A stretch of 64,000 nt of DNA from Candidatus Kapaibacterium sp. (GTDB taxonomy: Bacteria > Bacteroidota > Ignavibacteria > Kapaibacteriales > NICIL-2): assembly GCA_026003475.1 (NCBI GenBank), contig BPHJ01000001.1, forward strand, positions 256,545-320,544, read 5' to 3'. Of this stretch, positions 7,181 through 33,616 are shown in pieces. The notes under the pieces were generated by a model that was given only the letters and a program-made list of their open reading frames with translations, did not search any database and was not told the DNA's origin. Made by a program: the position numbers and the translations under genes. Every line of letters starts with the position of its first letter. Positions within the stretch are counted from its first letter, which is position 1.

Positions 7181-8668
7181 GTGCCGAAGAAACAATCCAT
7201 GCTCAGCTTGTTCGGAAGTGCGGAGTTGGAGCGCGTCAAACTCGACCAGCCTCCTGCTCCAGCGACGGAGTCGTCCGGTGATGCTACAACGGTCTGGCAG
7301 CGGTGTCTTGCCATCATTGGCGACAACGTTTCGCCCCAGCACTATCGGACGTGGTTCGAGCCAATCAAGCCGCTCCGGTGTGAGGGCCGTGAATTGGTCC
7401 TCCAAGTTCCCAGTCAGTTTTTCTACGAGTGGCTCGAGGAGCACTACTACGGTTTGCTGCAGAAGACGCTCTACCAGGTGCTCGGCAGTGGCGCACGACT
7501 CCGGTACGAAGTAGTCGTCGAAAACAGTAGTGAAACGCTCGAGCAGCGCACCATTCGCTTGCCGGCATTTCGGCAATCGGGGTCTGCACCTGTCCAAGCG
7601 GCGTTACCATTTACACCGACTGCGCCCGATGTGGCTGATTTTACCGGCTTCCTCAACCGGCGCTACACGTTCGCAAACTTCATCGCTGGCGAAAGCAATC
7701 AGCTTGCGCATTCGGCTGCGCAAGCCGTCGCCGAACAGCCCGGTCGAACACGCTTCAATCCGTTGGTCATCTACGGTGCGACGGGGCTGGGGAAAACGCA
7801 CCTTGTTCAAGCTATCGGCAATCGTATCCTTGAACGAAACCGCACTCTGCGCGTGCTCTATACTACCAGCGAACGCTTCACGATTGAGTACGTCAACGCA
7901 ATTCAGAACAACAAGACTAACGAGTTCACTGCTTTCTACCGCAGTGTTGATGTGCTGATTGTTGACGACATACAATTTTTCGAGGGGAAGGAGAAAACAC
8001 AAGACAACTTTTTTCACACCTTCAACGCGCTCCATCAACTGGGCAAGCAGATCATCTTGACCAGCGACCGCCCACCCAAAGAGCTACGCGACGTTGACGA
8101 GCGGCTCATCTCGCGCTTTCAGTGGGGGCTGACCGCCGACATCCAACCGCCAGACTACGAAATGCGGCTTGCCATTCTGCAGCGCAAAAGCCAAGACGAA
8201 GGCGTTGATGTTCCCCGCGAGGTACTCGAGTACATCGCGCGGCATGTTACGACCAGTGTCCGCGAACTCGAAGGATGCCTCATTAGCTTGATTGCCAAAG
8301 TCTCGCTCGATGGAAGGCTGCCAAGCGTCGAGCTTGCAAAAGAAGTTCTACGGAGCATTCTCGGTCCACTCGATTCGCTGGCCGTAACGATGGACGACAT
8401 CAAGAGCGCTGTTGCTGCATACTTCAACATCAGCACCGAGCTGCTGGAAAGCAAGACACGAAAGCACGAAGTCGTCCTCCCGCGACAAGTGGCGATGTAT
8501 TTGGCAAAGCAACTGACGACTCTTTCGCTCAAGTCCATCGGCCTTCATTTTGGCGGACGGGACCATACGACCGTGCTCCACTCCATTCAAATGGTTGAAG
8601 GTTACCTGGCAACCGATCCAACGGTGGCACAAGCAGTCGAGCAGCTCCAGCGGAAGCTGAAAGCATAA
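7181..8668 (+). CDS. dnaA: Chromosomal replication initiator protein DnaA
   Basis: Walker A GATGLGKTHL, IILTSDRPPKEL, and C-terminal DNA-binding helix region …KSIGLHFGGRDHTTVLHS. 495 aa. Confidence 0.95.
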   Translation: MPKKQSMLSLFGSAELERVKLDQPPAPATESSGDATTVWQRCLAIIGDNVSPQHYRTWFEPIKPLRCEGRELVLQVPSQFFYEWLEEHYYGLLQKTLYQVLGSGARLRYEVVVENSSETLEQRTIRLPAFRQSGSAPVQAALPFTPTAPDVADFTGFLNRRYTFANFIAGESNQLAHSAAQAVAEQPGRTRFNPLVIYGATGLGKTHLVQAIGNRILERNRTLRVLYTTSERFTIEYVNAIQNNKTNEFTAFYRSVDVLIVDDIQFFEGKEKTQDNFFHTFNALHQLGKQIILTSDRPPKELRDVDERLISRFQWGLTADIQPPDYEMRLAILQRKSQDEGVDVPREVLEYIARHVTTSVRELEGCLISLIAKVSLDGRLPSVELAKEVLRSILGPLDSLAVTMDDIKSAVAAYFNISTELLESKTRKHEVVLPRQVAMYLAKQLTTLSLKSIGLHFGGRDHTTVLHSIQMVEGYLATDPTVAQAVEQLQRKLKA

Positions 8669-8860
8669 GCTCTGCCAGCACTGTTTCTGCTGCTCCGAGA
8701 ACATTCTCTCAAAAAATCTATCCTCGGGCTTGGATGGGGCAGGCGGTGGCATTATTTTTGCACCGGCGTGAACATGGTAGTGGGATGGTGACGTTATTCC
8801 CAGGAATACCGCCGCTCTTCCACGTTGCGGTGATAGCAACAACTAATCCTGGAGGTACGA

Positions 8861-9343
8861 ATGAAACGTGTGCTACTTCTGGTTTGGCTGATCGCCTCTG
8901 GCATCGCCATTGCCCAGACCGTTCAGCGGAGCGTGGTTTCCAGCGGTGCAGTGCGTGCATCGAGCGGTTCGGTCGTGATGCAGGGGACCATCGGGCAACC
9001 TATCATCGGTAGTGGGGTCAATACCGAGCATCGCGCTGGTCACGGATTTTGGCACACCCTTGTTTCCAGTGTGAGCAGTGTGGAGCGCACCGATCCATTT
9101 CAGGTGCGGATCACGCCGCAGCCAGCGGTCACGGTTGCCACCATTGAGGTTGGTTGCACGCATGCAGTTAGTGCAGAGGTGCTGACACTGCAGGGGCAAC
9201 AGGTGGGCGCGGTTCGCTTTTCGTCCGATGCTGCCATGCAGCGTGGACAGCTTGATTGCAGCACCCTTGCCAGCGGGCTGTACTTGGTCCGCCTGCGGTG
9301 TGGGGAGCAGCAGCTATTCCTTCCGTTGATGATTGCAAAGTAA
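8861..9343 (+). CDS. Small secreted protein with T9SS C-terminal sorting domain
   Basis: Signal peptide MKRVLLLVWLIASGIAIAQ. C-terminal …LASGLYLVRLRCGEQQLFLPLMIAK is type-A-CTD-like. Confidence 0.5.
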   Translation: MKRVLLLVWLIASGIAIAQTVQRSVVSSGAVRASSGSVVMQGTIGQPIIGSGVNTEHRAGHGFWHTLVSSVSSVERTDPFQVRITPQPAVTVATIEVGCTHAVSAEVLTLQGQQVGAVRFSSDAAMQRGQLDCSTLASGLYLVRLRCGEQQLFLPLMIAK

Positions 9344-9382
9344 CCTACGTTGACATGTTTCACAAAAGCACGGAGTAGTCTC

Positions 9383-12300
9383 ATGAAGCGGTTGGTCCTG
9401 GTTTGTTTGCTGGTCTTGAGTGTGACCAGCGTGTTTGCGCAGATTCCGCGCGTGTTGTCGTACCAAGGGATATTGACTGATCCCGATGGGCGCATTCTGC
9501 CGGACGGGGAGTACACCCTAACGGTTCGACTCTACGATCGAGTGGATGCTACCGAGCCGATCTACGTGGAGGAGCATCGAGCCGTTGCGGTTCGAGGAGT
9601 CGTCAATCTGTTGATCGGGACGGTGGAGCCACTTCCGTGGAAGCTTTCCTTCGATCGGGTGTACTACGTGGGTCTGAGCATCAACGGTGGTGAGGAGCTT
9701 CGCCCGCGGACGATGCTGACAGCAGTGCCGTATGCGTTGCGCTCGGAGAGCGCGGCGGTGGCAGATGTGGCGAAGGGCTTGACGCCTGATGCCCTCAAAG
9801 GGGTCACTGTGCAGGCCACTCCAAGCGGTCCAGCCGGCGGTGACTTGATGGGGACCTATCCGAACCCCTACATTGGCAACAGCAAGGTGACTACACTCAA
9901 GATTGCCAGTTCTGCGGTGACGACCGACAAGTTAGCGCCTGGGGCCGTGACCGCGCCGAAACTCAACCAGATGGGAGCAGCTACTGGCGAATATCTTCGG
10001 TGGAATGGATCGCAGTGGGACCCTTCGCCGGTATCAACCGATGCATGGGCGTTGACGGGGAATACTATTAGCGGTACGCATTTTTTGGGCACCACGAATG
10101 CGCAGCCACTGGTGATACGGACCAGCAACACCGAACGGCTGCGGATTACCAGCAGTGGGAACGTTGGGATTGGCACCACCAGCCCATCGAATCTTCTGCA
10201 CATCGTGGGCTCGAGTGATCCTGTTCGAGTTCAGGGATTGAGTACCGATAACACGATCGATAATATCCTGGTTGTGGATGCCAATGGTGTGATGAAAATC
10301 CGCACCGCAACCAGTTTGTCTGGCTCGCTCGGCTGGAGCTTGACCGGGAATGGAAGCACAAATCCAGCAACTAATTTCCTTGGCACAACCGATGCAGTCG
10401 ACCTAGTCGTTCGCACCAACAACACAGAACGGCTTCGCGTTTCCAGCAGTGGGTTTGTCGGGATTGGAACATCCTCGCCAAGTGCTACCCTTGATGTCAA
10501 TGGCAGTGCACGGATGACCGGAAACCTCAGCGTCAACGGCGATGCAACGCTTGGGACATCGTCGAGCAATCAGCTTACAGTCAATGCACAAGTTGCGTCG
10601 GACCTGATTCCCACTACAACAAATACCTACGATCTTGGCATTACAAGCCTTCGTTGGCGGAATGGGTGGTTCGCAGGTACGGTAACAGCCGGCGGATTGA
10701 CACTCGACGGCTTTACCTCGGGATCTGTCCTGTTCGTTGGCAGTGGTGGTGCCCTGAGCGAAAACAATGCGACCTTTTTCTGGGATGATGTCAACATGCG
10801 GCTTGGGATTGGGACGAACGCACCGACGGCAAGGTTACACGTTGCAGGTACCGGCCGATTCGACGGGCAACTGACAGTAACTACGGGAGGGGCAGCAATC
10901 ACGGGCAATAGCACGGTGACGGGGACACTGGGTGTCAGCAGTGATGTCGGTGTCGGAGGAAATTTGACCGTGCAAGGTAACACTACACTTGGCGATGCCT
11001 CAAGCGACAACGTGACATTTACAGCCCGTGTGAATTCGAACATTCATCCTTCTGCTGATGCGAGCTACGATCTTGGCAGCAGCACTTTGCGGTGGAGGAA
11101 TGGTTGGTTCAGCGGGACGGTGACAGGGCAGAATGCGACGGTGACGAGTTTGACGCCTGGCTCAGTGGTGTTTGCTGGTACTGGAGGAGCATTGAGCCAG
11201 AACAATGCAAACTTTTTCTGGGACAACACCAACACGCGGCTTGGGATTGGGACGAACGCGCCGAGCCATCGGTTGCATGTGCATGCTCCGAGCTACAACG
11301 CAATCAATGTTACTAGTGCCGATAACACAGGTGCTGGTATTCGTTTCGATGCCAGCGGTAGTAGTGGGGGGCAGACATTTACCGTCTTATCAACAGGAAC
11401 AGGTGCTGGCGCAGGTGCTGGTAAACTCGGTTTTTTTGATGAAACAGGTAGCTTGTACAGAATGGTCATCGAGGGTACTACCGGCCACGTCGGCATCGGT
11501 ACAACAGCACCAAGCCAGCGATTGCACGTAGACGGCGGGCAGATTGCTGTAACGGGGAGCAGCGCTCCACCAGGCCCAGGTCCAGGACTCCAGCTTGGAA
11601 GCATCAATGGCAGTTATCGTTGGATCCAAAGCTATGATAACCAGCCACTGGCAATCAATCCACTCGGCAATAACGTCGGCATCGGTACGACCACCCCATC
11701 TACCGCGCTCCATGTTGCCCAAGACAATGCAACACCAGGAGGTGGTCAGCTCACCGTTTCTGGGAAGACTAACCAGAACAAACAAATCATTGTTGGGTTC
11801 AATACGACTGGTGACTACGGTCAAATTCAAGCAGTTGAACAAAGCGTCGCAACACGTCCTCTGGCGCTCAATCCTGTTGGGGGGAATGTTGGCATTGGTT
11901 TGACAGCACCCTCAGAGATGCTCCACGTTGCTGGGAATACCCGCGTGGATGGAAATTTGAGTGTGCTTGGCAATACCCAACTTGGCGATGCCACGAGCGA
12001 CAACGTGACATTTACAGCCCGTGTGAATTCGAACATTGATCCTGCTACCGATGCGAGCTACGATCTTGGCAGCAGCAGTTTGCGGTGGAAGGATGGCTGG
12101 TTCAGCGGGACGGTCACCTCGCAGAATGCCACGGTAACGAGTCTCTCGCCGGGGTCGGTGGTGTTTGCGGGCACCGGCGGGGCGTTGAGCCAGAACAATG
12201 CGAACTTTTTCTGGGACAACACCAACACACGGCTTGGGATTGGGACGAACGCACCGACGGCTGCGCTCGACCTTCGATTGGAGAACAACGAGCGCGGATT

Positions 12301-15300
12301 AGTCATTCGTGGTGGTGCCGCGCCAGCAGATAACTTCTTCCGAATTGAAGAAAACAGTGGGCAGTATCGGTGGCGCATTGATCAGAACTATGATCTCTTT
12401 GTGACTGATGGCACTGGGAATGATCTTGCTGTGTGGCGGAACAATGGCTACATCGGCATTGGAACGACTAGCCCAGCAGTACAACTTCACCTTAACGATG
12501 CGGGGAGTAATCCGGTCTCTTTGCGCTTGACAAATGTTACCGCTGCATCCGGCTTCGATGTTGGTATTACAACGTCGGGTACAGCTGAACTCCGTCACCA
12601 AGACGATTTCCCGGTTGAGGTGTATGTCAACAATACGCGAGCACTGCGTATCGAGCCAACAAGCGGTACTGCAAATCAGGTCCCGAACATTATTGGGGGA
12701 GATGCTGGTAATGCTGTTGGATCTGGCAACGAAGGTTCTGTCATTGGCGGTGGGCGCGGGCATAGTATTGATGCAGACAATTCTGTCATTGCCAGTGGAC
12801 TCAATCACGCTATCTCTGGTCCAAGCTCAGGGATCGTAGCTGGTGTTGCAAATTCGATTGAAAGTGAAAGTGCATTCATTGGTGCCGGAGCAGAAAATAT
12901 GATCGCGAACACCGCTGATTTTTCTGCAGTTGTCGCCGGGTCTCAAAATGGTGTGAGTGGATCGTATGCGTTCATCGGTTCTGGTTCCTTGAATAGTGCA
13001 TCTGGTGCCTATTCCGGTATCCTGGCAGGTGCCGAGAACGGTGTCAGTGGAGATGCTGCAATGGCAATTGGAATGGGCTTGTCTGCGAATTCCTACCGCG
13101 AAGTTGTGGTCGGATCGTACAATACCAACTATTCTGCGTTGAGCGAGACAACATGGAATGCTTCGGACCGACTTTTCGTTGTCGGAAATGGACAGAACAG
13201 CGGAACGCGTTCAGATGCTCTTATCATTTGGAAAAGTGGTAATGCACAGTTCTATTACGATGTCATGCTTGGCGATGCCTCAAGCGACAACGTTACGTTC
13301 GCTGCGCGGGTGAATTCGAACATTGATCCTGCTACCGATGCGAGCTACGATCTTGGCAGCAGCAGTTTGCGGTGGAAGGATGGTTGGTTCAGTGGGACGG
13401 TCACCTCGCAGAATGCAACGGTAACGAGTCTCTCGCCGGGGTCGGTGGTGTTTGCGGGCACCGGCGGAGCATTGAGCCAGAACAATGCAAACTTGTTCTG
13501 GGATGATGTAAACACGCGGCTTGGGATTGGAACGAACACACCCTCAACGACGCTGCATGTCGCTGGTGTGGCAACAATCACAAGCGATGCCTCGGTTGGT
13601 GGGAATTTGAGTGTTACTGGGAGCGCAACTATTGGTACCGGTTTGACTGTCTCCAACGGGGGTGCCACGATTACCGGAAATACCAGCACGACAGGGGATC
13701 TGTCTGCCGGTGGTAACTTGACGATCAATGGTAACGCCACGCTCGGTGATGCAGGAGGCGATCAGGTTACCATTAATGCTGCAACAGTCTCGGTACCCAA
13801 TATCCCAAGCAGTTCGACGGCAACCGACTTGGTCGTGTGGAATGCCAATAACCTTGAGCGTCGTGCGGCCAGTGGTTTGATTTCTACCTACGCGTGGATG
13901 CTTGGCGGTAATGCGATTACCAATCCAGCGACGGAGTGGATCGGCACAAGTTCGGCGCAACCATTCGTAGTCCGTGCAGGTGGTACGCAGACGCTTCAAT
14001 TCAACACCAACGGCAGCATCCAGCGAGACAATGGTGGCAATACACGCGGCACAAATGCGATTGATCTCCAAATCAGCCGGAGTAGTGCAAGTCAAGTTGC
14101 CAGCGGAAGTGCCGCAGTCATCGTTGGCGGGACTAATAACACAGCAAGCGGTGTGCAGAGCTTTGTCGGTGCAGGCGATAACAACACCGCTTCGCAGCAG
14201 TATGCAGCGGTAGTTGCTGGGATAAGCAATAGTGCAAGTGGTGCGCAGAGCTTCGTCGGTGGCGGGCAGAGCAATCAAGCAAACGGCAGCTACAGCACTG
14301 TCGCCGGTGGGCAAGGCAATGTCGCGCAAGGACAGTATTCGGCTATCCCTGGCGGGTTCAACATGAAGGTGGGTGACCGCAGCTTTGGCTTCAGTGGGCA
14401 GACGTCCGGGACAACGACCGATTTGAGCGGCTCCAGTCAGATTGCTGCCTTTGTGGATGTTGACCTGTGGCTCTACAACGTGCGCAACCAGGCATCGCAA
14501 TTGCGGCTCTACGAGCCCTCGGGTTCTGGGATCAACTACACTGCATTCCAAGCGCAGGCGCAAAGCGCTGATATCGTCTATACTCTTCCGGCAAGTATTC
14601 CCGCTGGTGGAGGGCTCTTGCAGACGGATGCTTCGGGGAATTTGAGCTGGATTAGCAGCACAGGCACCTTCTGGTCCTTGACGGGCAACGCTGCAACAAA
14701 TCCGGCAACGCAGTTCCTCGGCACAAGCGATGCGCAGCCGCTTGTAGTTCGCACCAATAACCTTGAGCGCATGCGTGTGACCAGCAGTGGCATTGTGCAA
14801 ATCCAAAATCAGGCCAGCGGCACCCCAACGACTCAGTTCCATGTTCTTGGCGGTAACAATGGTGCGGGGGCTACGGAGGTTGTCGTGCAAGCGGGACAAA
14901 ATCAGCTGAATACGAATCTCATTGAGTGGCGTGACCAGTATGGGACCCCACTCGGTGCAATCGATCCCAGTGGCTTTGTCGGGATAGGCATTAGTACATC
15001 GCTTGGGGCGGCACTGCACGTCATGAGCAATGGAGCACAGCCGGCAGCATTGTTCGAAAACGGTACCGTTCAGGTCGGCACCACTGGAACACCGATGAAT
15101 GCGATAATGCACGGGACGATTACTGTTGATCCTCCCTCGATCGGTGCAAATTCCTCGGCGACTGTGAGTGTTACAATTACTGGAGTCGAACCTGGCGATC
15201 GCATATTTCTGACTCCACCAGATACGTTCGAAGATGATCTGATTTTCCAAGGTGCTGCAGTCACAGCGTCTGATACTGTTACAATTAAGATCCGCAACAT

Positions 15301-15361
15301 ACTTGGCATTTCAGTTGATGGAAATGCACTCGATTGGAACTACCTTGTCATCAAACCATAA
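9383..15361 (+). CDS. Giant (approx. 1990 aa) secreted phage-tail-fibre-like / beta-roll surface fibre protein; no recognisable T9SS CTD and no S74 domain
   Basis: Signal peptide MKRLVLVCLLVLSVTSVFAQ. At least eight occurrences of the motif (N/F/H)VGIGT(T/S)xPSxxLH(V/I). YadA-head/Hep_Hag-like 14-residue Gly/Ser/Asn repeats (e.g. SFVGAGDNNTASQQ / YAAVVAGISNSASGAQ / SFVGGGQSNQANGSY). Three near-identical ~93-aa internal modules. The N-terminal part, …PSGPAGGDLMGTYPNPYIGNSKVTTLKIASSAVTTDKLAPGAVT, is homologous to the repeat unit of the downstream 1247-aa fibre protein. Confidence 0.7.
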   Translation: MKRLVLVCLLVLSVTSVFAQIPRVLSYQGILTDPDGRILPDGEYTLTVRLYDRVDATEPIYVEEHRAVAVRGVVNLLIGTVEPLPWKLSFDRVYYVGLSINGGEELRPRTMLTAVPYALRSESAAVADVAKGLTPDALKGVTVQATPSGPAGGDLMGTYPNPYIGNSKVTTLKIASSAVTTDKLAPGAVTAPKLNQMGAATGEYLRWNGSQWDPSPVSTDAWALTGNTISGTHFLGTTNAQPLVIRTSNTERLRITSSGNVGIGTTSPSNLLHIVGSSDPVRVQGLSTDNTIDNILVVDANGVMKIRTATSLSGSLGWSLTGNGSTNPATNFLGTTDAVDLVVRTNNTERLRVSSSGFVGIGTSSPSATLDVNGSARMTGNLSVNGDATLGTSSSNQLTVNAQVASDLIPTTTNTYDLGITSLRWRNGWFAGTVTAGGLTLDGFTSGSVLFVGSGGALSENNATFFWDDVNMRLGIGTNAPTARLHVAGTGRFDGQLTVTTGGAAITGNSTVTGTLGVSSDVGVGGNLTVQGNTTLGDASSDNVTFTARVNSNIHPSADASYDLGSSTLRWRNGWFSGTVTGQNATVTSLTPGSVVFAGTGGALSQNNANFFWDNTNTRLGIGTNAPSHRLHVHAPSYNAINVTSADNTGAGIRFDASGSSGGQTFTVLSTGTGAGAGAGKLGFFDETGSLYRMVIEGTTGHVGIGTTAPSQRLHVDGGQIAVTGSSAPPGPGPGLQLGSINGSYRWIQSYDNQPLAINPLGNNVGIGTTTPSTALHVAQDNATPGGGQLTVSGKTNQNKQIIVGFNTTGDYGQIQAVEQSVATRPLALNPVGGNVGIGLTAPSEMLHVAGNTRVDGNLSVLGNTQLGDATSDNVTFTARVNSNIDPATDASYDLGSSSLRWKDGWFSGTVTSQNATVTSLSPGSVVFAGTGGALSQNNANFFWDNTNTRLGIGTNAPTAALDLRLENNERGLVIRGGAAPADNFFRIEENSGQYRWRIDQNYDLFVTDGTGNDLAVWRNNGYIGIGTTSPAVQLHLNDAGSNPVSLRLTNVTAASGFDVGITTSGTAELRHQDDFPVEVYVNNTRALRIEPTSGTANQVPNIIGGDAGNAVGSGNEGSVIGGGRGHSIDADNSVIASGLNHAISGPSSGIVAGVANSIESESAFIGAGAENMIANTADFSAVVAGSQNGVSGSYAFIGSGSLNSASGAYSGILAGAENGVSGDAAMAIGMGLSANSYREVVVGSYNTNYSALSETTWNASDRLFVVGNGQNSGTRSDALIIWKSGNAQFYYDVMLGDASSDNVTFAARVNSNIDPATDASYDLGSSSLRWKDGWFSGTVTSQNATVTSLSPGSVVFAGTGGALSQNNANLFWDDVNTRLGIGTNTPSTTLHVAGVATITSDASVGGNLSVTGSATIGTGLTVSNGGATITGNTSTTGDLSAGGNLTINGNATLGDAGGDQVTINAATVSVPNIPSSSTATDLVVWNANNLERRAASGLISTYAWMLGGNAITNPATEWIGTSSAQPFVVRAGGTQTLQFNTNGSIQRDNGGNTRGTNAIDLQISRSSASQVASGSAAVIVGGTNNTASGVQSFVGAGDNNTASQQYAAVVAGISNSASGAQSFVGGGQSNQANGSYSTVAGGQGNVAQGQYSAIPGGFNMKVGDRSFGFSGQTSGTTTDLSGSSQIAAFVDVDLWLYNVRNQASQLRLYEPSGSGINYTAFQAQAQSADIVYTLPASIPAGGGLLQTDASGNLSWISSTGTFWSLTGNAATNPATQFLGTSDAQPLVVRTNNLERMRVTSSGIVQIQNQASGTPTTQFHVLGGNNGAGATEVVVQAGQNQLNTNLIEWRDQYGTPLGAIDPSGFVGIGISTSLGAALHVMSNGAQPAALFENGTVQVGTTGTPMNAIMHGTITVDPPSIGANSSATVSVTITGVEPGDRIFLTPPDTFEDDLIFQGAAVTASDTVTIKIRNILGISVDGNALDWNYLVIKP
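10988..11268 (+). repeat. Intragenic dispersed repeat module, copy 1 (~280 bp; encodes LGDASSDNVTFTARVNSNI…RLGIGTNAPS)
   Basis: Direct nucleotide comparison with copies at 11981 and 13268. Roughly 88–95% identity by eye. Confidence 0.8.
11981..12260 (+). repeat. Intragenic dispersed repeat module, copy 2
   Basis: Encodes LGDATSDNVTFTARVNSNIDPATDASYDLGSSSLRWKDGWFSGTVTSQNATVTSLSPGSVVFAGTGGALSQNNANFFWDNTNTRLGIGTNAPT. The central ~200 nt are nearly identical to copy 3. Confidence 0.8.
13268..13548 (+). repeat. Intragenic dispersed repeat module, copy 3
   Basis: Encodes LGDASSDNVTFAARVNSNIDPATDASYDLGSSSLRWKDGWFSGTVTSQNATVTSLSPGSVVFAGTGGALSQNNANLFWDDVNTRLGIGTNTPS. Confidence 0.8.
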
Positions 15362-15405
15362 GCGATGTCGCTATGGGCAGCGATCGCTCAATGTCATCTG
15401 GTGGG

Positions 15406-16110
15406 ATGAGGCGATGGATACAGATTCTCGGCTTGGCCTTAGTGCTCGTTGCGAGTGCAGTAGGACAGGATCGCGTTCCTAATGGCTGGTGGCAACAAGA
15501 GGACTCCCGTACTCGAACGGGAGTCCAGCCACTTGGCTATGGCCTGGAAACAATCCTCCAGCTTTCTCCCAAGCAGTTCGAGGAACTTCTCTGCGATGGC
15601 AGGCGCATCCCGAACATCGGTCTGATGGCGCAGGAGGTGTTTCCCCTTGTTCCTGAAGCAGTCCGCCCACCATCAAAACAATGCCAACACTGGGCAATAG
15701 ATTACTCACGGCTCGTGCCGATTCTCATCGCTGCAATCCAACAGCAACAGCAGCAAATTGCGCAGCTCCGCCAAACTGTCGAACAGTTGCAGGCGATGGT
15801 ACAAGTGCCCACCGCAGGGACAAGCTCCCAGCATGTCCGCCTTGATGGCAATTGGCTGGGTGATAACATCCCTAATCCACACGATGGAACAACGGTGATT
15901 CCGTACTACGTGCCTGCGGGCGTTGGGCGTGCCCAGCTCGAAGTCAGCGATGCAACGGGACGGACCGTTCGCACCGTCGAGCTGGTGGCGCGCGAGCAAT
16001 GGGCTCAAGTGACACTCGATATGAGCTTGCTCAGTTCGGGCACGTATGAGTACCGCTTGCTCTTCGATGGACGTGTTGTTGCCACCAAACAGATGCAATT
16101 GGTCAAGTGA
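15406..16110 (+). CDS. Stand-alone secreted Peptidase-S74-like (phage-fibre intramolecular chaperone) domain protein with Gln-rich coiled coil and T9SS C-terminal sorting domain
   Basis: Signal peptide MRRWIQILGLALVLVASAVGQ; the ORF is also open from 15334. The S74-like segment RRIPNIGLMAQEVFPLVPEAV…IDYSRLVPILIAAIQQQQQQIAQLRQ is homologous to the C-terminal region of the 16280..20023 protein. C-terminal NIPNPHDGTTVIPYYVPAGVGRAQLEVSDATGRTVRTVELV…SGTYEYRLLFDGRVVATKQMQLVK is a type-A CTD. Confidence 0.6.
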   Translation: MRRWIQILGLALVLVASAVGQDRVPNGWWQQEDSRTRTGVQPLGYGLETILQLSPKQFEELLCDGRRIPNIGLMAQEVFPLVPEAVRPPSKQCQHWAIDYSRLVPILIAAIQQQQQQIAQLRQTVEQLQAMVQVPTAGTSSQHVRLDGNWLGDNIPNPHDGTTVIPYYVPAGVGRAQLEVSDATGRTVRTVELVAREQWAQVTLDMSLLSSGTYEYRLLFDGRVVATKQMQLVK

Positions 16111-16279
16111 TGCGGATGCAGAGTGGTGTGTGTGCCCTACAAAAGAGAAGGTGGCGTTCGACAAGTCTGTAGCAAGGCAATAAGTTACGCAAAGCACGAA
16201 TATTTTGGCACGGTTATTTCTTCTGATGTGAAGCAGCCACACTCGTGGTTAGTATGTTTCACATCTCAACCGTGCAGCG

Positions 16280-19200
16280 ATGAAACATGTGTCGTTTTTC
16301 TGTGCAGCCGTTCTTGGGGTTATCTTCACCGTTACGACCCCATCTTCCGCGCAGGTGGGCAGCCTGATCAACTACGGCGCTATCATCAAAGATTCTCTGC
16401 GCCTGGAAAATGCGGCTTCTTTTGTTCGCCTTCCATCGGACGGGTCACTCCGCTGGGGTGAGGACATGGTTGGAATGCTGGTAAGCGCTGGCTTGACAGT
16501 TTCTCGTACATGGACACTACCCGACGAAAGCGGTATCATCCTAACATCGGCGAGAACGTTCAGCGGCGACGTCAGTGGTGTGTACAACAACTTGCAGCTT
16601 GGCAGTGGCGTGGTCGGTACGGCCGAGCTTGCCGATGGTGCGGTGACGGATGCGAAGGTGAACGACGTTTCGTGGACGAAGATCACGGGAGCGCCGACGA
16701 GTTTTCCGCCGAGTGGGAGTGCTGGTGGTGATTTGACGGGGACGTATCCGAACCCGACGATAGCCAACGATGCGGTGACCAGTGCGAAGATTGCCGACGG
16801 GACGATCACCGATGCTGACATCAGCAGCAGTGCGGCGATAGCGGTTAGCAAGCTGGCACCGGGCAGCAATGGGCAAGTGTTGACGACGGTTGGTGGAGTG
16901 CCGACGTGGTCGAGTGTGAGCATCACGGAGACTGATCCGGTGTGGACGGCAGCGGAGCCCAGCTATGGGAACTTGACGCAGAACGATACGGTTTCGGGAA
17001 CGTGGACGTTTAGCAACGCAATCAACGGCAGCATCACAGGTAATGCGGCGACAGCGACGGCGTTGCAGACAGCGCGCAACTTTTCGCTATCGGGCGATGT
17101 GACGGCGCCGGCGGTGTCGTTTGATGGGACGGGGAACGTGACGTTGACGACGACGCTTGCCGATGGTTCAGTGAGCACGGCCAAGCTTGCCGATGGTGCG
17201 GTGACGGATGCGAAGGTGAACGACGTTTCGTGGACGAAGATCACGGGAGCGCCGACGAGTTTTCCGCCGAGTGGGAGTGCTGGTGGTGATTTGACGGGGA
17301 CGTATCCGAACCCGACGATAGCCAACGATGCGGTGACGAGTGCGAAGATTGCCGACGGGACGATCACCGATGCTGACATCAGCAGCAGTGCAGCGATAGC
17401 GGTCAGCAAGCTGGCGGCGGGCAGTGATGGGCAAGTGTTGACGACAGTGGGAGGAGTGCCGACGTGGTCGAGCGTGAGCATCACGGAGACTGATCCGGTG
17501 TGGACGGCGGCGGAGCCGAGTTATGGTAACTTGACGCAGAACGAGACGGTTTCGGGAACGTGGACGTTTAGCAACGCAATCAACGGCAGCATCACAGGTA
17601 ATGCGGCGACAGCGACGGCGTTGCAGACAGCGCGCAACTTTTCGCTATCGGGCGATGTGACGGCGCCGGCGGTGTCGTTTGATGGGACGGGGAACGTGAC
17701 GTTGACGACGACGCTTGCCGATGGTTCAGTGAGCACGGCCAAGCTTGCCGATGGTGCGGTGACGGATGCGAAGGTGAGCGATGTATCGTGGACGAAGATC
17801 ACGGGAGCGCCGACGAGTTTTCCGCCGAGTGGGAGTGCTGGTGGTGATTTGACGGGGACGTATCCGAACCCGACGATAGCCAACGATGCGGTGACGAGTG
17901 CGAAGATTGCCGACGGGACGATCACCGATGCTGACATCAGCAGCAGTGCAGCGATAGCAGTTAGCAAGCTGGCACCGGGCAGCAATGGGCAAGTGTTGAC
18001 GACAGTGGGAGGAGTGCCGACGTGGTCGAGCGTGAGCATCACGGAGACTGATCCGGTGTGGACGGCAGCGGAGCCCAGCTATGGGAACTTGACGCAGAAC
18101 GATACGGTTTCGGGAACGTGGACGTTTAGCAACGCAATCAACGGCAGCATCACAGGTAATGCGGCGACGGCGACGGCATTGCAGACAGCGCGCAACTTTT
18201 CGCTATCGGGCGATGTGACGTCGCCGGCGGTGTCGTTTGATGGGACGGGGAACGTGACGTTGACGACGACGCTTGCCAATGGTTCAGTGAGCACGGCCAA
18301 GCTTGCCGATGGTGCGGTGACGGATGCGAAGGTGAGCGATGTTTCGTGGACGAAGATCACGGGAGCGCCGACGAGTTTTCCGCCGAGTGGGAGTGCTGGT
18401 GGTGATTTGACGGGGACGTATCCGAACCCGACGATTGCCAACGATGCGGTGACGAGTGCGAAGATTGCCGACGGGACGATCACCGATGCTGACATCAGCA
18501 GCAGTGCAGCGATAGCGGTTAGCAAGCTGGCACCGGGCAGCAATGGGCAAGTGTTGACGACGGTGGGAGGAGTGCCGACGTGGTCGAGCGTGAGCATCAC
18601 GGAGACTGATCCGGTGTGGACGGCGGCGGAGCCGAGTTATGGTAACTTGACGCAGAACGAGACGGTTTCGGGAACGTGGACGTTTAGCAACGCAATCAAC
18701 GGCAGCATCACAGGTAATGCGGCGACAGCGACGGCGTTGCAGACAGCGCGCAACTTTTCGCTATCGGGCGATGTGACGGCGCCGGCGGTGTCGTTTGATG
18801 GGACGGGGAACGTGACGTTGACGACGACGCTTGCCAATGGTTCAGTGAGCACGGCCAAGCTTGCCGACGGTGCGGTGACGGATGCGAAGGTGAGCGATGT
18901 ATCGTGGGGGAAGATCACGGGAGCGCCGACGAGTTTTCCGCCGAGTGGGAGTGCTGGTGGTGATTTGACGGGGACGTATCCGAACCCGACGATAGCCAAC
19001 GATGCGGTGACCAGTGCGAAGATTGCCGATGGGACGATCACCGATGCTGACATCAGCAGCAGTGCGGCGATCGCGGTCAGCAAGCTTGCGGCGGGCAGTG
19101 ATGGGCAAATTCTCGTCACAAGTAGCGGTTCACCGCAATGGGCAAATGCAAGCACGCTCAGCGGTAGTTTCTGGGCACTCGGGGGCAATAGTGCTACTGC

Positions 19201-20023
19201 AGACCTGTCCCTGGGGACCACGAGCGATGACGATGTTGTATTCCTCCGGAACAATACTGAGGCGTTCCGTATCGGCTCTGTCAGTGGTAACCCTGTGCTC
19301 AACCTTGGTTCAGCAACTCCAGCGTATCGGATAGACTTGCCGAACAACTCGAACATTGCGATCGGGCGGATACGCGCGCAGGGGTACGCGACGTACTCAT
19401 CACGAGCGTGGAAGGAGGACATTCGTCCCATCGAGGGTGCCCTTGAGAAAGCACTTCGGCTGACGGGGGTACAATACCAGTGGAAGCCGGAGTATGGCGG
19501 CACGCGCGATATTGGGTTTGTGATGGAGGAGGTAGCGGAGGTAGTACCGGAGGTAGTAGACCGGGATCCGAAGACAGGCGAGTATCTTGGGATGGAGTAC
19601 AGTCGGTTGACGGCGTTGCTTGTGGAAGCGCTCAAGGAGGAACACCGCCGCAACGAGGAACTGCGTGCCGAGCTTGTGCAGTTGCGGCAGATGGTCGAGC
19701 AGCTCGCCACACGGCAGCAGGTAACCGCTGGCACATCACATATCACCGTTCGCGTTGAAGGTGACTGGCTTGGGCAAAACGTTCCCAACCCGCACGACGG
19801 AACGACGACGATACCGTGCTACGTTCCTGCAGGAGTTGGAAGCGCGGAGCTTGCCATCAGCGATGCAGCTGGGCGTCTGGTTCGTCGTGTTGTGCTCAGC
19901 GCACGTGATACGTGGACGAACGTAACGGTAGACATGTCACTCCTTGCGTCGGGGACGTACGAATACCAGCTCGTCTTCGACGGTCGTGTCGTTGCCAGCA
20001 AGCAGATGCAGCTGGTCAAGTAG
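16280..20023 (+). CDS. Phage-tail-fibre-like secreted protein (1247 aa): 4.4 tandem 186-aa repeats, then Peptidase-S74 intramolecular chaperone domain, then T9SS C-terminal sorting domain
   Basis: Signal peptide MKHVSFFCAAVLGVIFTVTTPSSAQ. The repeat unit contains …AKLADGAVTDAKVNDVSWTKITG…TSAKIADGTITDADISSSAAIAVSKL…, reminiscent of tail-fibre motifs. The S74 region is SSRAWKEDIRPIEGALEKALRLTGVQYQWKPEYGGTRDIGFVMEEVAEVVPEVV…YLGMEYSRLTALLVEALKEE. The CTD is NVPNPHDGTTTIPCYVPAGVGSAELAISDAAGRLVRRVVLS…SGTYEYQLVFDGRVVASKQMQLVK. Confidence 0.8.
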   Translation: MKHVSFFCAAVLGVIFTVTTPSSAQVGSLINYGAIIKDSLRLENAASFVRLPSDGSLRWGEDMVGMLVSAGLTVSRTWTLPDESGIILTSARTFSGDVSGVYNNLQLGSGVVGTAELADGAVTDAKVNDVSWTKITGAPTSFPPSGSAGGDLTGTYPNPTIANDAVTSAKIADGTITDADISSSAAIAVSKLAPGSNGQVLTTVGGVPTWSSVSITETDPVWTAAEPSYGNLTQNDTVSGTWTFSNAINGSITGNAATATALQTARNFSLSGDVTAPAVSFDGTGNVTLTTTLADGSVSTAKLADGAVTDAKVNDVSWTKITGAPTSFPPSGSAGGDLTGTYPNPTIANDAVTSAKIADGTITDADISSSAAIAVSKLAAGSDGQVLTTVGGVPTWSSVSITETDPVWTAAEPSYGNLTQNETVSGTWTFSNAINGSITGNAATATALQTARNFSLSGDVTAPAVSFDGTGNVTLTTTLADGSVSTAKLADGAVTDAKVSDVSWTKITGAPTSFPPSGSAGGDLTGTYPNPTIANDAVTSAKIADGTITDADISSSAAIAVSKLAPGSNGQVLTTVGGVPTWSSVSITETDPVWTAAEPSYGNLTQNDTVSGTWTFSNAINGSITGNAATATALQTARNFSLSGDVTSPAVSFDGTGNVTLTTTLANGSVSTAKLADGAVTDAKVSDVSWTKITGAPTSFPPSGSAGGDLTGTYPNPTIANDAVTSAKIADGTITDADISSSAAIAVSKLAPGSNGQVLTTVGGVPTWSSVSITETDPVWTAAEPSYGNLTQNETVSGTWTFSNAINGSITGNAATATALQTARNFSLSGDVTAPAVSFDGTGNVTLTTTLANGSVSTAKLADGAVTDAKVSDVSWGKITGAPTSFPPSGSAGGDLTGTYPNPTIANDAVTSAKIADGTITDADISSSAAIAVSKLAAGSDGQILVTSSGSPQWANASTLSGSFWALGGNSATADLSLGTTSDDDVVFLRNNTEAFRIGSVSGNPVLNLGSATPAYRIDLPNNSNIAIGRIRAQGYATYSSRAWKEDIRPIEGALEKALRLTGVQYQWKPEYGGTRDIGFVMEEVAEVVPEVVDRDPKTGEYLGMEYSRLTALLVEALKEEHRRNEELRAELVQLRQMVEQLATRQQVTAGTSHITVRVEGDWLGQNVPNPHDGTTTIPCYVPAGVGSAELAISDAAGRLVRRVVLSARDTWTNVTVDMSLLASGTYEYQLVFDGRVVASKQMQLVK
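16627..19095 (+). repeat. Tandem in-frame repeat array, period 558 bp (186 aa), ~4.4 copies, ~97% nucleotide identity
   Basis: The anchor 'gcttgccgatggtgcggtgacgg' recurs at 16627, 17185, 17743, 18301 and 18859, each exactly 558 nt apart. A few SNPs are distributed mosaically: N/S in AKV(N/S)DVSW, APGSNGQ/AAGSDGQ, QNDTVSG/QNETVSG, TAPAVSF/TSPAVSF. Confidence 0.95.
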
Positions 20024-20048
20024 CATCCGCTGTTGGCAAACCGATGGT

Positions 20049-20086
20049 GGGGCAGGCCTTGTAGGTCTGCCCCCTGTGTTTTGTGG
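20049..20086 (+). terminator. Rho-independent terminator candidate after the fibre gene cluster
   Basis: GGGGCAGG…(loop)…CTGCCCCC hairpin followed by TGTGTTTTGTGG. Confidence 0.45.
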
Positions 20087-20190
20087 CGATCACAGTAGAG
20101 TTGTCCCCCAGAAGTGGCAATTTCCCGTAGTGCATTCCGTCTTGTGCAGCAACTGCTTCTGTTCCACCGTTCTACCGTAGGAGAGTTCGA

Positions 20191-22449
20191 ATGGCATTCG
20201 ATTTTTCGACGATTCGCCGCGTCTATGAACAATTGCCGGAGCGTCTTGCTGATGCACGTGGCATCCTCGGTCGGCCGATGACGCTTGCGGAAAAAATCCT
20301 CTATGCCCACATGGCGGCGTTGCCATCAGCACCGCCGATACGCGGACAGGATTACGTCGAGTTCTACCCCGACCGCGTTGCGATGCAGGATGCTACGGCA
20401 CAGATGGCGTTGCTGCAGTTCATGAGTGCGGGTATCCCGCGGGTTGCGGTTCCTACGACGGTACACTGCGACCACCTCATCCGAGCCGAGCGCGGAGCCA
20501 AAGAGGATCTTCAAACGGCGCTGATCGAAAACGATGAGGTCTTCAACTTCCTCGCTTCGGTTTCGAAAAAGTATGGCATTGGGTTCTGGAAGCCTGGTGC
20601 AGGTATCATCCATCAAGTGGTGCTCGAAAACTATGCCTTCCCCGGTGGCATGATGATTGGCACCGACTCTCACACACCCAATGCTGGCGGCTTGGGAATG
20701 CTTGCGATTGGTGTTGGGGGAGCCGATGCCGTGGACGTGATGGCGGGCATGCCATGGGAATTGCTCATGCCAAAGCATATCGGCGTACGCTTGACCGGAC
20801 GCATGAGTGGATGGACTGCACCAAAGGATGTGATTCTCAAGCTGGCTGGAATTCTCACGGTCAAAGGTGGGACCGGCGCGATCATCGAGTACTTCGGTGA
20901 TGGATGCGCAACCATCAGCGCGACGGGCAAAGCAACCATTTGCAACATGGGCGCTGAAGTTGGTGCGACAACCTCGATCTTCCCCTACGACGAGGCAATG
21001 GATCGCTACCTGCGCGCGACCGGCCGTTCTGACGTCGCCGATGCAGCACGCCCACTGGCAGAGTACCTCCGCCACGATGACGACGTCGAACGCAATCCGG
21101 AGAAGTACTTCGATCGCATCATCGAGATTGATCTTTCCACACTCGAACCGCACATCAACGGACCCTTCACGCCCGACCGTGCAATGCCAATCAGCGAGTT
21201 TGTCAAGGCTGTCGAGCAGAACGGATGGCCAGCCGATTTGCGAGTAGCGCTGATTGGCTCGTGTACGAACTCCTCGTATGAGGACATGACGCGCGTGGCC
21301 GAGATCGCCGACTATGCTGCTAAACACGGACTCAAAGCTAAGTGTGAGCTTACGATCACGCCGGGCTCTGAACAAATCCGCGCAACGATGGAACGCGATG
21401 GAATCCTGGAAAAACTCGAAGCAATTGGTGCAACCGTCCTCGCGAACGCATGCGGTCCGTGTATCGGGCAGTGGAAACGACACGACGTCAAAAAAGGCGA
21501 CAAAAACTCGATCATCACGTCCTTCAATCGGAACTTCAGCGGTCGTAACGACGGCAATCCCGATACGCATGCTTTCGTTGCATCACCTGAAACGGTCCTC
21601 GGGTTTGCCCTGACCGGTGATTTGCGCGTTGACTTCACCACGCAGCCGATCAACGGTTCGGTGCTCAATCCACCGCGAGGAGAAGAACTTCCAGCCCGTG
21701 GATTCGTGCCGGATCCCGAAGGGTACGTCCCCCCTGCCGAGGATGGCAGCACCATCGAAGTGATCATCAAACCCGATTCTCAGCGCTTGCAACGCCTGGA
21801 GCCATTTCCGCCACCCAGACCAGAAGAATTTATCGACATGGTGCTTTTGCTCAAAGTCAAGGGCAAGTGCACGACCGACCACATCTCCCCGGCGGGTCCG
21901 TGGCTTCGCTTCCGCGGACATTTGGACAACATCTCCAACAACATGTTCACCGGCGCAACCAATGCCTTCAATGGCAAGCTCAACTCAGCAAAGAACGTCT
22001 TTACCGGTGAGTATGCCGAAGTACCGCAGGTTGCGCGGGACTACAAAGCGCGTGGCGTCTCGTGGATCGTCGTTGGTGAGGAAAACTACGGCGAAGGTTC
22101 CTCGCGCGAACATGCCGCGATGGAACCGCGCTATTTGGGCGGGAAGGTGATTTTGGTCAAGTCGTTTGCGCGTATTCACGAGACCAACCTCAAAAAGCAG
22201 GGCATGCTACCGCTGGTATTCGACAATCCTGCCGACTACGACCTCATCGGCGAGGATGACCGTTTCACGCTCGATGTACGGCAGCTCCGTCCAGCAGAGC
22301 CGATGGAGTTGCTCATTCGAAAACCCGATGGAAGCGAGCATCGCATTCTCGTTCGGCATTCGATGAATGAGCACCAAATCGAGTGGTTCTGGGCGGGCAG
22401 CGCACTCAACCTGATGGCACGCCGCCTGCGCCAATCGTCGAATGCATAA
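20191..22449 (+). CDS. acnA: Aconitate hydratase (mitochondrial-type ~750-aa aconitase family)
   Basis: Aconitase signatures [12 protein letters not shown] and [11 protein letters not shown]; 4Fe-4S ligand cysteines. 752 aa. Confidence 0.85.
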
Positions 22450-31198: not shown

Positions 31199-33616
31199 TT
31201 AGAAGCTGTAGCGCAGTCCGAGTGCAAGCTGGAGCCGCTCGACGGTCCAGGTCGCATCACGGAGAACACTCCCGAGCGGGAGGACGTACTGAACTGCCAG
31301 CGTTGCTGTCCACTGTTGGGTGTGAGGTATCGGTGCCGCAAAACCGAATCCGCCGTAGAGTTCGGGAATGAATGCGGCTGTTGCTGCGTCGCGTTGTGCG
31401 GTCATGGTGCCAGGTACGATGGCATCGGCAAGTGGTGAAGGGAGAACAAACCGTCGCTCCAGGTCAAATGCCGAGGATAGCGGGATTGCTCCTTGCAGGC
31501 CACCGCTCAGGTACAGCTCGTAGATACGCGAGCCACTTTGCTTGGTCAAAAGCACCCACTCTGCACCAATTCCGATTGCCAGCATCGGTGCGCGGGGGAT
31601 CAGTCGCGTTTCTGCTTGAACAACAACTAGGGAATCGTTTGCAAGCCGAATGTGTGTGGTGCTGGTATCCGGTGCCGCCAGATACTGTGCAAAAGGTTGC
31701 AAGCTCAGTCGGGCGGTCAAGCGGAGAGCATCGCTTATCGAGTACCCGCCGCTCACACTAATGCCGATCGCTCCACCGTAAGCGTTCGATGTCGGACGGG
31801 GCAGGCGGATTTCGCCGGTTGCACTCAACGAGCTGGTGTGGTAGACAGCATTGGCGGTCCCCCATAGGCCAAGATGCCAAGGTGTCCGTGGTGGGCAAGA
31901 AAATCCGCTGGTGAATTCGAAGCTGCGGCGCTGGTGGTTGTAGCAGTACGTGTAGGTAACCACCGAACGATTCCCCGCGGCATCAATAAGTGCCAGTACA
32001 AGCTGGCCATCCTGTTCCAGATCGAGGGGATGAACGTTGAATTCTGCTTGTGGCTGTCCGCGCTCGATACGGGGGAGATATGCACGCAAGTTCCGCGCCT
32101 GGAGTGGTGTGATGCTATCGAGACCGCTATCGGTGGGGCGATCGTCGCGAACGATCACACGGAGCGCCTTCCCCTGGGATGTGATTTGAAATGCACTCTG
32201 CGGTGGCAGTCGGTCGCGGAGAGTGTCGAGAACAAAAAATGTCTGCCCACCCATCGTGCCATAGGCATCGTAGGCATCGCTACGGTAGCCGAAGCCATAG
32301 GAATACAGTCCGAACGGCTCATCACCGGTGATGGTGTGTGTACCGTAGCTGAGCCGAACATGTGCCACAAAATAGCTGCTGATACCGATGCGCTCAAAGC
32401 TGGTTGCGGGAATGGGGCGGCCGTCCAAGCGGATTGTGCCAATAGCTTCCTCACGCGCGACGATGTTGACGTAATGATCCCATGAACCCTGTACGGGTGT
32501 TGCAATGCGGTAGCGGTCAACGAACTGCTGTGTTGGGGAAATCAGAATCATCATCGGATCACCGACTTCGTCACCATTGCCGAAGCCTTGGGAGTACTGC
32601 GCAACCAGGATTGGCTTATCTGCCGATAGTTGGACGTGGTCTGTGGCATTGGGTTCTTCGTAGTACTCCCCAGCGTTGAGGATAGCAATGAGTGTTTGGT
32701 CTTTGAATACGCGTGTCCGGTCCTGGCTGGCAAGGATGCGATACGTGTAGCGTGAACGTCCGCGGAGCTTGCCGATGTAGTACTGCTTGCCCCAGGCGCT
32801 GATGGGCGGGAGCTGCTCGACAAGGTGGTTGCAGGCTTTGGTGCCCGGCGGGACGTAGGCACAGGTATGCCCGCTGAAGACGGCGATGGGTTTGGTGGCT
32901 TTGATGAGCGTGCCGGTCAGATCGCCCGTGCCTGTGGCGAAGTATTGCGCACGGACTTGATAGACTTGTCCCCGATCGAGGGTGATGGTGTAGCGCTCGT
33001 AGGCGCCGTGCCTATCGGTGGTCGGAGTCGTTGGGGTGATCTCCACTTGCGTATCATCCTCCGTGGCAATGATCGCAAACAGTGGTGCCAAGACTGCCGA
33101 CAACTTGCTGTAACAGAACGCGCGGTATTCAGTGCCAAGCACACTGACGGGAAGGGCAAGGTAGGTGTCGGTTGTCTGGATGCGATGATTGAGTGCATAG
33201 ACGGAGATGGGTGCAGTGCTTTGGATGTGGAGCGCTCGGTTCTTGATGCGGGGGAAGGTATCGAGCTCGGCTTCAGGCGTGATCGGGACGCTACCGATGG
33301 TGCCTCCCTTGATCCGCAACGAATGGCGGAAACCGAGCGCTGGAATTTCGAGCAGCACATCAGCATCGTCTTCGGCCGTGATGAACACCTCCAGCGAGGC
33401 GGGCTCGTAGCTGCCAGGTTTGTTGGGGTCTTCTTCGCGGAAGTTCTTCATGAAGCAGAGCCAAAACTCCGTGCCTTCGGAGTTCAGAATACGATACCGC
33501 GCTGCTGTGTCGGCTCCCTGGGCCCAAAGTCGAGCGCTTACCCCGGAGACAACAACAAGAGTGCAGCCAATCCACGCCAGGATACGGAGTGCGTTTTTCA
33601 CTTCCCAACCACGCAT
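31199..33616 (-). CDS. Secreted protein: IgGFc-binding-protein-N-terminal-like domain (~480 aa) fused to a C-terminal outer-membrane beta-barrel (~300 aa, ends …LGLRYSF)
   Basis: Signal peptide-like N-terminus. Motif GTEFWLCFMKN and ~450-aa homology to the N-terminal half of the 41453..44416 protein. The C-terminal region has alternating hydrophobic beta-strands (AIGISVSGGYSIS, LAIGIGAEWVLL, WTATLAVQYVLPL) and a terminal Phe. Confidence 0.55.
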   Translation of the reverse strand: MRGWEVKNALRILAWIGCTLVVVSGVSARLWAQGADTAARYRILNSEGTEFWLCFMKNFREEDPNKPGSYEPASLEVFITAEDDADVLLEIPALGFRHSLRIKGGTIGSVPITPEAELDTFPRIKNRALHIQSTAPISVYALNHRIQTTDTYLALPVSVLGTEYRAFCYSKLSAVLAPLFAIIATEDDTQVEITPTTPTTDRHGAYERYTITLDRGQVYQVRAQYFATGTGDLTGTLIKATKPIAVFSGHTCAYVPPGTKACNHLVEQLPPISAWGKQYYIGKLRGRSRYTYRILASQDRTRVFKDQTLIAILNAGEYYEEPNATDHVQLSADKPILVAQYSQGFGNGDEVGDPMMILISPTQQFVDRYRIATPVQGSWDHYVNIVAREEAIGTIRLDGRPIPATSFERIGISSYFVAHVRLSYGTHTITGDEPFGLYSYGFGYRSDAYDAYGTMGGQTFFVLDTLRDRLPPQSAFQITSQGKALRVIVRDDRPTDSGLDSITPLQARNLRAYLPRIERGQPQAEFNVHPLDLEQDGQLVLALIDAAGNRSVVTYTYCYNHQRRSFEFTSGFSCPPRTPWHLGLWGTANAVYHTSSLSATGEIRLPRPTSNAYGGAIGISVSGGYSISDALRLTARLSLQPFAQYLAAPDTSTTHIRLANDSLVVVQAETRLIPRAPMLAIGIGAEWVLLTKQSGSRIYELYLSGGLQGAIPLSSAFDLERRFVLPSPLADAIVPGTMTAQRDAATAAFIPELYGGFGFAAPIPHTQQWTATLAVQYVLPLGSVLRDATWTVERLQLALGLRYSF

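Follow-up and report, generated by a model that had tools for sequence, protein, structure and literature searches.

A stand-alone S74-like protein with a signal peptide and a putative type IX secretion tail, encoded directly behind a giant fibre gene in Kapabacteria

Candidatus Kapaibacterium sp. KatS3mg039, a hot-spring bacterium of the Kapabacteria (Fibrobacteres–Chlorobi–Bacteroidetes, or FCB, group), carries a small gene between two genes for large fibre-like proteins. The gene lies in a stretch of 64,000 nucleotides (nt), called here the window. S74 domains, also known as intramolecular chaperone auto-processing (ICA) domains, are textbook chaperones that act only within their own polypeptide and then cut themselves off, and export through the secretion system of type IX (T9SS) is thought to require a C-terminal domain (CTD) on the cargo itself. 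In this locus, an S74-like domain and a CTD-like tail stand together in a small protein, directly behind a giant fibre with neither of the two. What can such a module do as a protein of its own? An earlier note, made from the letters of the window, proposed two answers: (a) a trans-acting partner of the upstream fibre, or (b) an ancestral single gene interrupted by a frameshift, by recoding or by a sequencing indel. We consider a form of the first as the best-supported mechanism, with a probability of about 0.5: the small protein may have been split off as a non-cleaving partner that serves the giant fibre in assembly and T9SS export, as argued from gene order, conservation and homology. The features of the small gene and of the two fibre genes are the following.

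9383–15361, + strand: giant fibre-like protein, 2003 amino acids (aa), repeat-rich; the frame opens at 9350 and the probable start is the ATG at 9383 (MKRLVLVCLLVLSVTSVFAQ)
15068–15358, + strand: tip domain of the giant fibre, 97 aa, C-terminal and conserved (...DPPSIGANSSATV...DWNYLVIKP, then stop)
15406–16110, + strand: small gene, 234 aa from the ATG at 15406
15406–15468, + strand: signal peptide of the small protein, MRRWIQILGLALVLVASAVG, then Gln at +1 (read from the sequence)
15499–15516, + strand: degenerate catalytic motif E32-D-S-R-T-R37 of the small protein (from the Pfam alignment and the alignment with canonical fibres)
15501–15526, + strand: RNA or DNA hairpin with a perfect 10-bp stem, inside the small gene over the EDSRTRTGV codons
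15502–15714, + strand: S74/ICA-like domain of the small protein (Pfam match on residues 33–87, fold to about residue 103)
15715–15804, + strand: Gln-rich long helix, residues 104–133, presumed trimeric coiled coil (from the AlphaFold2, or AF2, model)
15847–16107, + strand: T9SS type-A CTD-like β-sandwich, residues 148–234
16280–20023, + strand: canonical fibre, 1247 aa, with signal peptide, five 186-aa repeats, S74, coiled coil and CTD

The small gene

The open reading frame (ORF) at 15334–16110 described by the earlier note is present; as a mechanical frame it opens at a TTG and encodes 258 aa. Two starts of the gene itself are plausible, the ATG at 15406 (MRRWIQILGLALVLVASAVGQ..., 234 aa) and the ATG at 15373 (245 aa). 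The second is used in the GenBank record (GIV53725.1, 245 aa, annotated as 'hypothetical protein'), and the first yields the more typical signal peptide, with cleavage between MRRWIQILGLALVLVASAVG and Q. Counted from 15406, the product has 234 aa and not the 235 aa given before; that it has a gene of its own holds. Looked up as an exact sequence, the 234-aa form gives no match. Since both ATGs are 3′ of the stop codon of the giant gene (15359–15361), the 28-nt overlap formerly assigned to the two genes belongs to the open frame, as a mere upstream extension, and not to the gene.

Thirteen stand-alone homologues (236–285 aa) with the same layout occur in Kapabacteria, in 'Chlorobiota' metagenome-assembled genomes, and in HR20, HR21 and NICIL-2. 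The gene is separate in 12 assemblies, which represent nine sequence lineages of Kapabacteria, and the orthologues of its product share 51–91% identity. In these 12 assemblies the small gene begins 1–44 nt 3′ of a large fibre ORF without S74 and CTD, and at every locus found the upstream fibre has a signal peptide and neither of the two domains. The adjacency holds across divergence to ~45% identity, while the rest of the cluster varies. Among strains near-identical to the window, the small gene is invariant, with a giant fibre of 1619–2003 aa and a downstream fibre of 708–1389 aa.

The position of the upstream stop codon is conserved across the nine lineages (after ...NYLVIKP, or after ...WRLMSVVE in the HR21 group), while the spacer between the giant and the small gene varies in sequence and length. 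The frame of the small gene relative to the giant gene is 0, +1 or +2 depending on the genome, both genes being in one frame at loci L001 and L006. A signal peptide, judged by eye from the sequence, is present in every orthologue (n-region, hydrophobic core, small-x-small site, then Q), and the peptide sequences differ. The Q after signal cleavage resembles the Q-rule of Bacteroidetes (PMC5837995; the Kapabacteria lineage falls outside the coverage of that paper). Comparison with six orthologues gives ratios of nonsynonymous to synonymous substitution rates (dN/dS) of 0.05–0.2, with synonymous sites saturated, in the S74 part and in the CTD.

The conserved stop, the variable spacers, the three frames, the separate signal peptides and the purifying selection exclude, for practical purposes, a frameshift, a recoding event or a pseudogene, and hypothesis (b) is refuted. 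Every orthologous locus has two genes with a stop between them. On this comparative evidence, Kapabacteria have here a real gene, conserved and translated separately.

The small protein

By sequence and predicted fold, four parts make up the small protein: Sec signal peptide, S74/ICA-type domain, Gln-rich helix and a tail like the type-A CTDs of T9SS. In the signal peptide, already recognized by the earlier note, an n-region and a hydrophobic core lead to a small-x-small site with Gln after it. The Pfam model Peptidase_S74 (PF13884) matches residues 33–87 with 24.3 bits (gathering cut-off 22, E = 3.8e-5), and PHROG tail-fibre families match the S74 part (best E = 2.8e-12). Against the PDB, the family profile finds the MyRF ICA domain (7dc3, E = 0.0024) and gp37 of phage S16 (6f45, E = 0.029), and the S74 part shares the fold of the solved S74/ICA domains. 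The AF2 model, of a single chain, has a predicted local distance difference test (pLDDT) score of 81. The Gln-rich stretch pointed out before (AAIQQQQQQIAQLRQ) is present within the AF2-predicted helix 104–133 and, by analogy with the family, is presumed to form a trimeric coiled coil. The extreme C-terminus is an Ig-like β-sandwich of ~85 aa that matches solved CTDs. For the T9SS CTD claimed by the earlier note, the β-sandwich and the 74% identity to the CTD of the next fibre (which itself scores 27.1 bits) stand in its favour; the profile score of the small protein falls under the cut-offs.

The autocleavage consensus is degenerate, as had been noticed. The Pfam alignment starts with D33 at model position 2, so that E32 falls at the position of the Ser nucleophile and R37 at that of the Lys general base, E32-D-S-R-T-R37 being aligned on S-D-x-R-x-K of the model. 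The same motif aligns with Y-S-S-R-A-W-K of the neighbouring fibre, in which the Ser...Lys dyad is intact. All 13 stand-alone homologues have Glu or Ala in place of the Ser; 11 of them also have Arg or Thr in place of the Lys, which only the distant P0013 and P0014 keep. In MYRF, S587A and the conservative K592R each abolish cleavage, and GVIAQ is a trimerisation element of the ICA domain (PMC3742440). The counterpart of that GVIAQ-type motif is retained in the small protein as IGLMAQE, in which G72 is invariant in an 18-sequence alignment and nearly so in a 29-sequence alignment. With the dyad replaced and the trimerisation motif kept, and by analogy with the MYRF mutants, the S74 domain should still fold and oligomerise, without self-cleavage. 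The motif that replaces the dyad (RAPQGWWQQEDAR) is the best-conserved stretch of the small protein, modelled with low confidence in the AF2 monomer. By these alignments, the small protein is a variant of the S74 family that is stand-alone, non-catalytic, linked to a fibre and provided with both a signal peptide and a CTD.

At the nucleotide level, the hairpin GGACTCCCGT...ACGGGAGTCC (15501–15526) coincides exactly with the codons for the degenerate dyad motif. Folded over 60 nt (15484–15543), the sequence has −30.2 kcal/mol (z = −4.2 vs. shuffles). The stem is kept in L001 and L007 by paired changes (TCC to GCC with GGA to GGC); the hairpin is missing in L002, L005 and L003, and it is without Rfam match.

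The overall identity of 48% between the small protein and the C-terminus of the next fibre conceals two histories. The S74 part shares 23–36% identity with the canonical fibre S74 of the same genomes, against 60–94% among its own orthologues. Between the CTD and those of neighbouring fibres, identity is 74–95% (74% in the window, for 15847–16107 vs. 19760–20020, and 95% in L001). In L001, the CTD of the small protein is 95% identical to the CTD of the L001 fibre and 85% identical to that of the window orthologue, a sign of gene conversion or co-adaptation among the CTDs of one genome. With an S74 part diverged from those of the fibres and a CTD close to theirs, the stand-alone S74 is, on these identities, an old dedicated lineage with a CTD kept matched to the resident fibres by exchange. 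The lineage is small: in a profile search of the whole library, 4 representatives fall below E = 1e-30, vs. 71,114 S74-type proteins.

The giant fibre and the role of the small protein

The 2003-aa fibre has a signal peptide and, in agreement with the earlier note, no S74 or CTD match in Pfam, NCBIfam or custom hidden Markov models. Its residues 1681–1808 and the stem of P0019, a fibre that carries S74 and CTD in cis, share 63% identity. After the shared stem, P0019 continues with YSSRAWK, S74, coiled coil and CTD, and the giant with its tip domain. As far as these alignments tell, the swapping of alternative C-terminal end modules on a common stem is a property of the fibre genes of these bacteria. 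The tip domain closes the upstream fibre in seven lineages. Its structural neighbours are ends of tailspikes and not CTDs; the possibility that this domain hides a type A or type B CTD of T9SS was rejected on these neighbours and on the lack of an NCBIfam or Pfam match. No Pfam or PHROG model covers the tip-domain family. Homologues of ~110–118 aa, stand-alone and without signal peptide, occur in many metagenomes, and one of them (L092, 8001–8342) lies, on a phage-like contig of 58 kb, directly 3′ of a major capsid gene of lambda-E type. Dispersed 300-nt repeats are found in the giant fibre gene at 10520, 10958, 11951 and 13238.

In the mechanism that we favour, a module acting in cis (to fold, trimerise, tag for export and cut itself off) would have been split away as a non-covalent partner. 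In the periplasm, a trimer of the stand-alone S74 domain and its coiled coil would dock on the giant fibre at its C-terminal end. The docked S74 domain may help to register or hold the fibre trimer, and the CTDs with which the folded complex passes the T9SS translocon would come from the partner. The N-terminal RAPQGWWQQEDAR motif is a candidate contact surface with the fibre. Without a covalent link autocleavage would be unneeded, and the loss of the dyad would thereby be accounted for. The proteins that T9SS moves are folded, and a folded CTD is required (PMC9251779). The invariant adjacency, the lost nucleophile and the sister stems with modules fused in cis agree with hypothesis (a). The export step in its full form, in which a dead S74 trimerisation module with signal peptide and CTD binds the CTD-less giant in the periplasm and carries it through T9SS, is proposed only tentatively and is in our view doubtful.

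Several observations weigh against a partnership. Fibres of 500–700 aa with the same tip domain (...WSYMVIRP, then stop) are without an S74-like gene downstream (L079–L088, metagenome contigs); thus, the tip domain does not strictly need the stand-alone partner, and the idea that the two always travel together was rejected on this second group of tip-bearing fibres. Orphan proteins of ~145 aa, in which an S74-like domain and a coiled coil come right after a signal peptide, occur far from fibre genes and have no CTD, so that a free S74-like module can have a role of its own. In the small protein, Por_Secre_tail matches residues 156–221 with 20.7 bits, under the cut-offs of 27 (Pfam PF18962) and 23 (TIGR04183). 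No T9SS component is present within the 64-kb window (the machinery was not sought outside the window). In the literature, we did not find a precedent for T9SS hitch-hiking on the CTD of another protein; searches on S74 with T9SS, on stand-alone S74 and on expression data for NICIL-2 gave nothing usable and no description of this type of protein.

In L082 and L090, two proteins come after the partner-less tip fibre, one of ~135 aa that has a signal peptide and one of ~760 aa with ...IEVG(L/Q)P at its end. The same pair of proteins occurs also in L095.

The orphan proteins are found in Adhaeribacter (L046, L056, L032), Sphingobacterium (L065, L066, L069), Pedobacter (L074) and Chitinophagaceae (L049, L061, L070). 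In those of Adhaeribacter, S-D-R-E-L-K is kept, two residues past the point where signal cleavage is predicted; in the others, the Ser is replaced by Ala, Thr or Glu. In RefSeq they are named 'tail fiber domain-containing protein' or 'Peptidase S74 domain-containing protein' (e.g., WP_093099658.1, WP_146896163.1, WP_133577105.1). The premise of the earlier note that S74 domains are strictly intramolecular was, with such stand-alone S74-like signal-peptide proteins already in RefSeq, too strong.

These unlinked proteins of several Bacteroidota, mostly without the Ser, speak for another role, that of an independent surface or periplasmic protein. The small protein would be a short trimeric stub (S74-like head and coiled coil), exported by T9SS for its own purpose and present in the cluster because it arose there, e.g., by deletion of a stem. 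The occurrence of tip-domain fibres without a partner agrees with such a role, as does the alignment to the canonical fibre, whose first aligned residue precedes the old cleavage site by ~13 positions, as a stem deletion would leave it. However, the place behind a CTD-less and S74-less fibre is invariant in 12 of 12 assemblies, and the exit of the CTD-less giant from the periplasm is left unexplained. We consider an independent role rather unlikely, while giving it real weight.

The small protein could also be an anchor and not a chaperone. After export and removal of the CTD, its C-terminus would be attached to the surface of the outer membrane, and the giant fibre, exported separately, would dock on the N-terminal head. 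Removal of the CTD and attachment to anionic lipopolysaccharide is the fate of many Porphyromonas T9SS cargoes, and linkage and conservation support an anchor in the same way as an export partner. The data do not separate docking before export from docking after; with an anchor, however, the giant fibre is still without a recognizable export signal of its own, and we regard it as improbable.

A decaying pseudogene, left from the duplication of a fibre 3′ end, or a silent cassette that donates sequence in CTD/S74 recombination would fit with the loss of the catalytic residues, with the sequence exchange seen in the homogenised CTD (95% to the neighbouring fibre in L001 vs. 85% to the window orthologue) and with fibre genes that differ in repeat number between strains. 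Against this, dN/dS stays at 0.05–0.2 (synonymous sites saturated), the length is intact and the signal peptide present in 13 of 13 homologues, and the dyad-replacing motif is the best-conserved stretch of the protein; such an origin of the gene is very improbable. Finally, the splitting of one fibre–S74–CTD gene by a sequencing or assembly indel or by a programmed frameshift, suggested by the frame open from 15334 with its 28-nt overlap and by the common frame in L001 and L006, has a negligible chance against a stop conserved in independent assemblies, frames of 0, 1 and 2, varying spacers, a functional-looking signal peptide between both coding parts in every copy and a source record that likewise annotates two genes.

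The gene cluster and related systems

Four genes on the + strand (for the 160-aa protein, the giant fibre, the small protein and the 1247-aa fibre) occupy 8861–20073; the features of this region not listed above are the following.

8861–9343, + strand: 160-aa protein with signal peptide, short region and T9SS CTD-like tail, first in the fibre cluster
20049–20073, + strand: terminator-like hairpin of 11 bp (8 GC pairs), with a T-rich tail after it

In a consensus scan, the hairpin at 20049–20073 is the sole strong terminator-like hairpin of the cluster; its position 3′ of the last fibre suggests that the four genes (8861–20023) could form one transcription unit. An Rfam scan of 8600–20400 gives no family. 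The setting is chromosomal and non-phage, with dnaA at 7181–8668, aconitase at 20191–22449 and, further on, recG, a TonB-dependent receptor and efflux genes. In the window and in L001, dnaA is directly 5′ of the fibre cluster, which places the cluster beside the probable replication origin region.

The downstream fibre contains DUF5907 repeats, S74 (49 bits) and a CTD. Five tandem units of 558 nt (186 aa), 88–94% identical, cover 16597–19386. In near-identical strains this fibre has 708, 895 or 1389 aa and, thus, the repeat copy number varies by strain.

The 160-aa protein matches Por_Secre_tail with 25 bits (under the cut-off of 27) and TIGR04183 with 21.4. In the window, L001, L002 and L005, its gene is 5′ of the giant fibre gene. 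The family (P0245–P0270, 26 database members) has a signal peptide, the motif ...QGTIGQPIIG... and a CTD-like tail, with copies at 8861–9343 in the window, 3460–3945 in L001, 5598–6077 and 18178–18657 in L002, and 7305–7784 in L005. A function as second adaptor specific to CTD-less fibres was rejected: the gene precedes also a 2210-aa fibre with S74 and CTD in cis (L093, KatS3mg038 genome).

Elsewhere in the window, two large proteins have strong IgGFc_binding matches (31199–33616, − strand, and 41438–44416, + strand; E = 8e-81 and 1e-68), and another CTD-bearing protein is encoded at 11–2326. A 568-aa open frame (13544–15250, − strand) is antisense to the giant fibre gene, and the repeats of the downstream fibre likewise face long antisense ORFs. 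Such frames probably result from the Gly/Ser/Thr/Ala-rich composition of the repeats.

With the S74 chaperones of phage endosialidases, tailspikes and tail fibres (PF13884; MEROPS S74), the small protein shares homologous sequence and fold, the trimerisation motif, the helix that follows and the association with a fibre. In contrast to them, it comes from a separate gene with its own signal peptide, behind a conserved stop and outside the fibre polypeptide; its S74 domain precedes a T9SS CTD, and its gene is chromosomal, near dnaA and aconitase. Its Ser–Lys dyad is replaced (Glu...Arg) and, judging from these residues, self-cleavage is not expected. In the MYRF ICA domain (PDB 7dc3), the dyad cuts in cis after trimerisation, whereas the small protein has no dyad and nothing to cut.

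Tail-fibre assembly chaperones encoded separately, just 3′ of the fibre gene, are known in lambda (Tfa), Mu (U) and T4 (gp38). The order is alike, a fibre gene and then a small same-strand gene directly downstream (gap of 1–44 nt at all loci here), and so is the idea, as proposed here, of a helper that acts in trans on the C-terminal end of the fibre. There is, however, no sequence relation (these chaperones are absent from the Pfam and PHROG matches), and the small protein is S74-derived and itself secreted. The T9SS type-A cargoes (TIGR04183/PF18962) have in common with it the N-terminal Sec signal and the C-terminal β-sandwich of ~85 aa. In the small protein, the cargo part is only the S74-like head and the helix, and a CTD that would serve a second, CTD-less polypeptide is a proposal without precedent found in the literature. 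The ~145-aa orphans of Bacteroidota resemble the small protein in their stand-alone build, with a signal peptide before the S74-like domain and coiled coil and with the Ser mostly replaced. They differ in having no CTD and no fibre beside them, and they score 35–53 bits against the profile of the stand-alone family, vs. 145–182 within the family.

Regardless of the mechanism, a small conserved family, now annotated as 'hypothetical', is defined, and a wider, unstudied set of stand-alone S74-like proteins with signal peptides is flagged in Bacteroidota. If the small protein is indeed a partner that takes the giant fibre through T9SS, it would be the first S74 chaperone in split form, and the giant the first T9SS cargo exported by a CTD given in trans; a folding nucleus and an export tag would then be deliverable in trans. 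The locus would offer a natural system in which the chaperone function of S74 is separated from its protease function, and would hint at a route for the T9SS export of proteins without a CTD.

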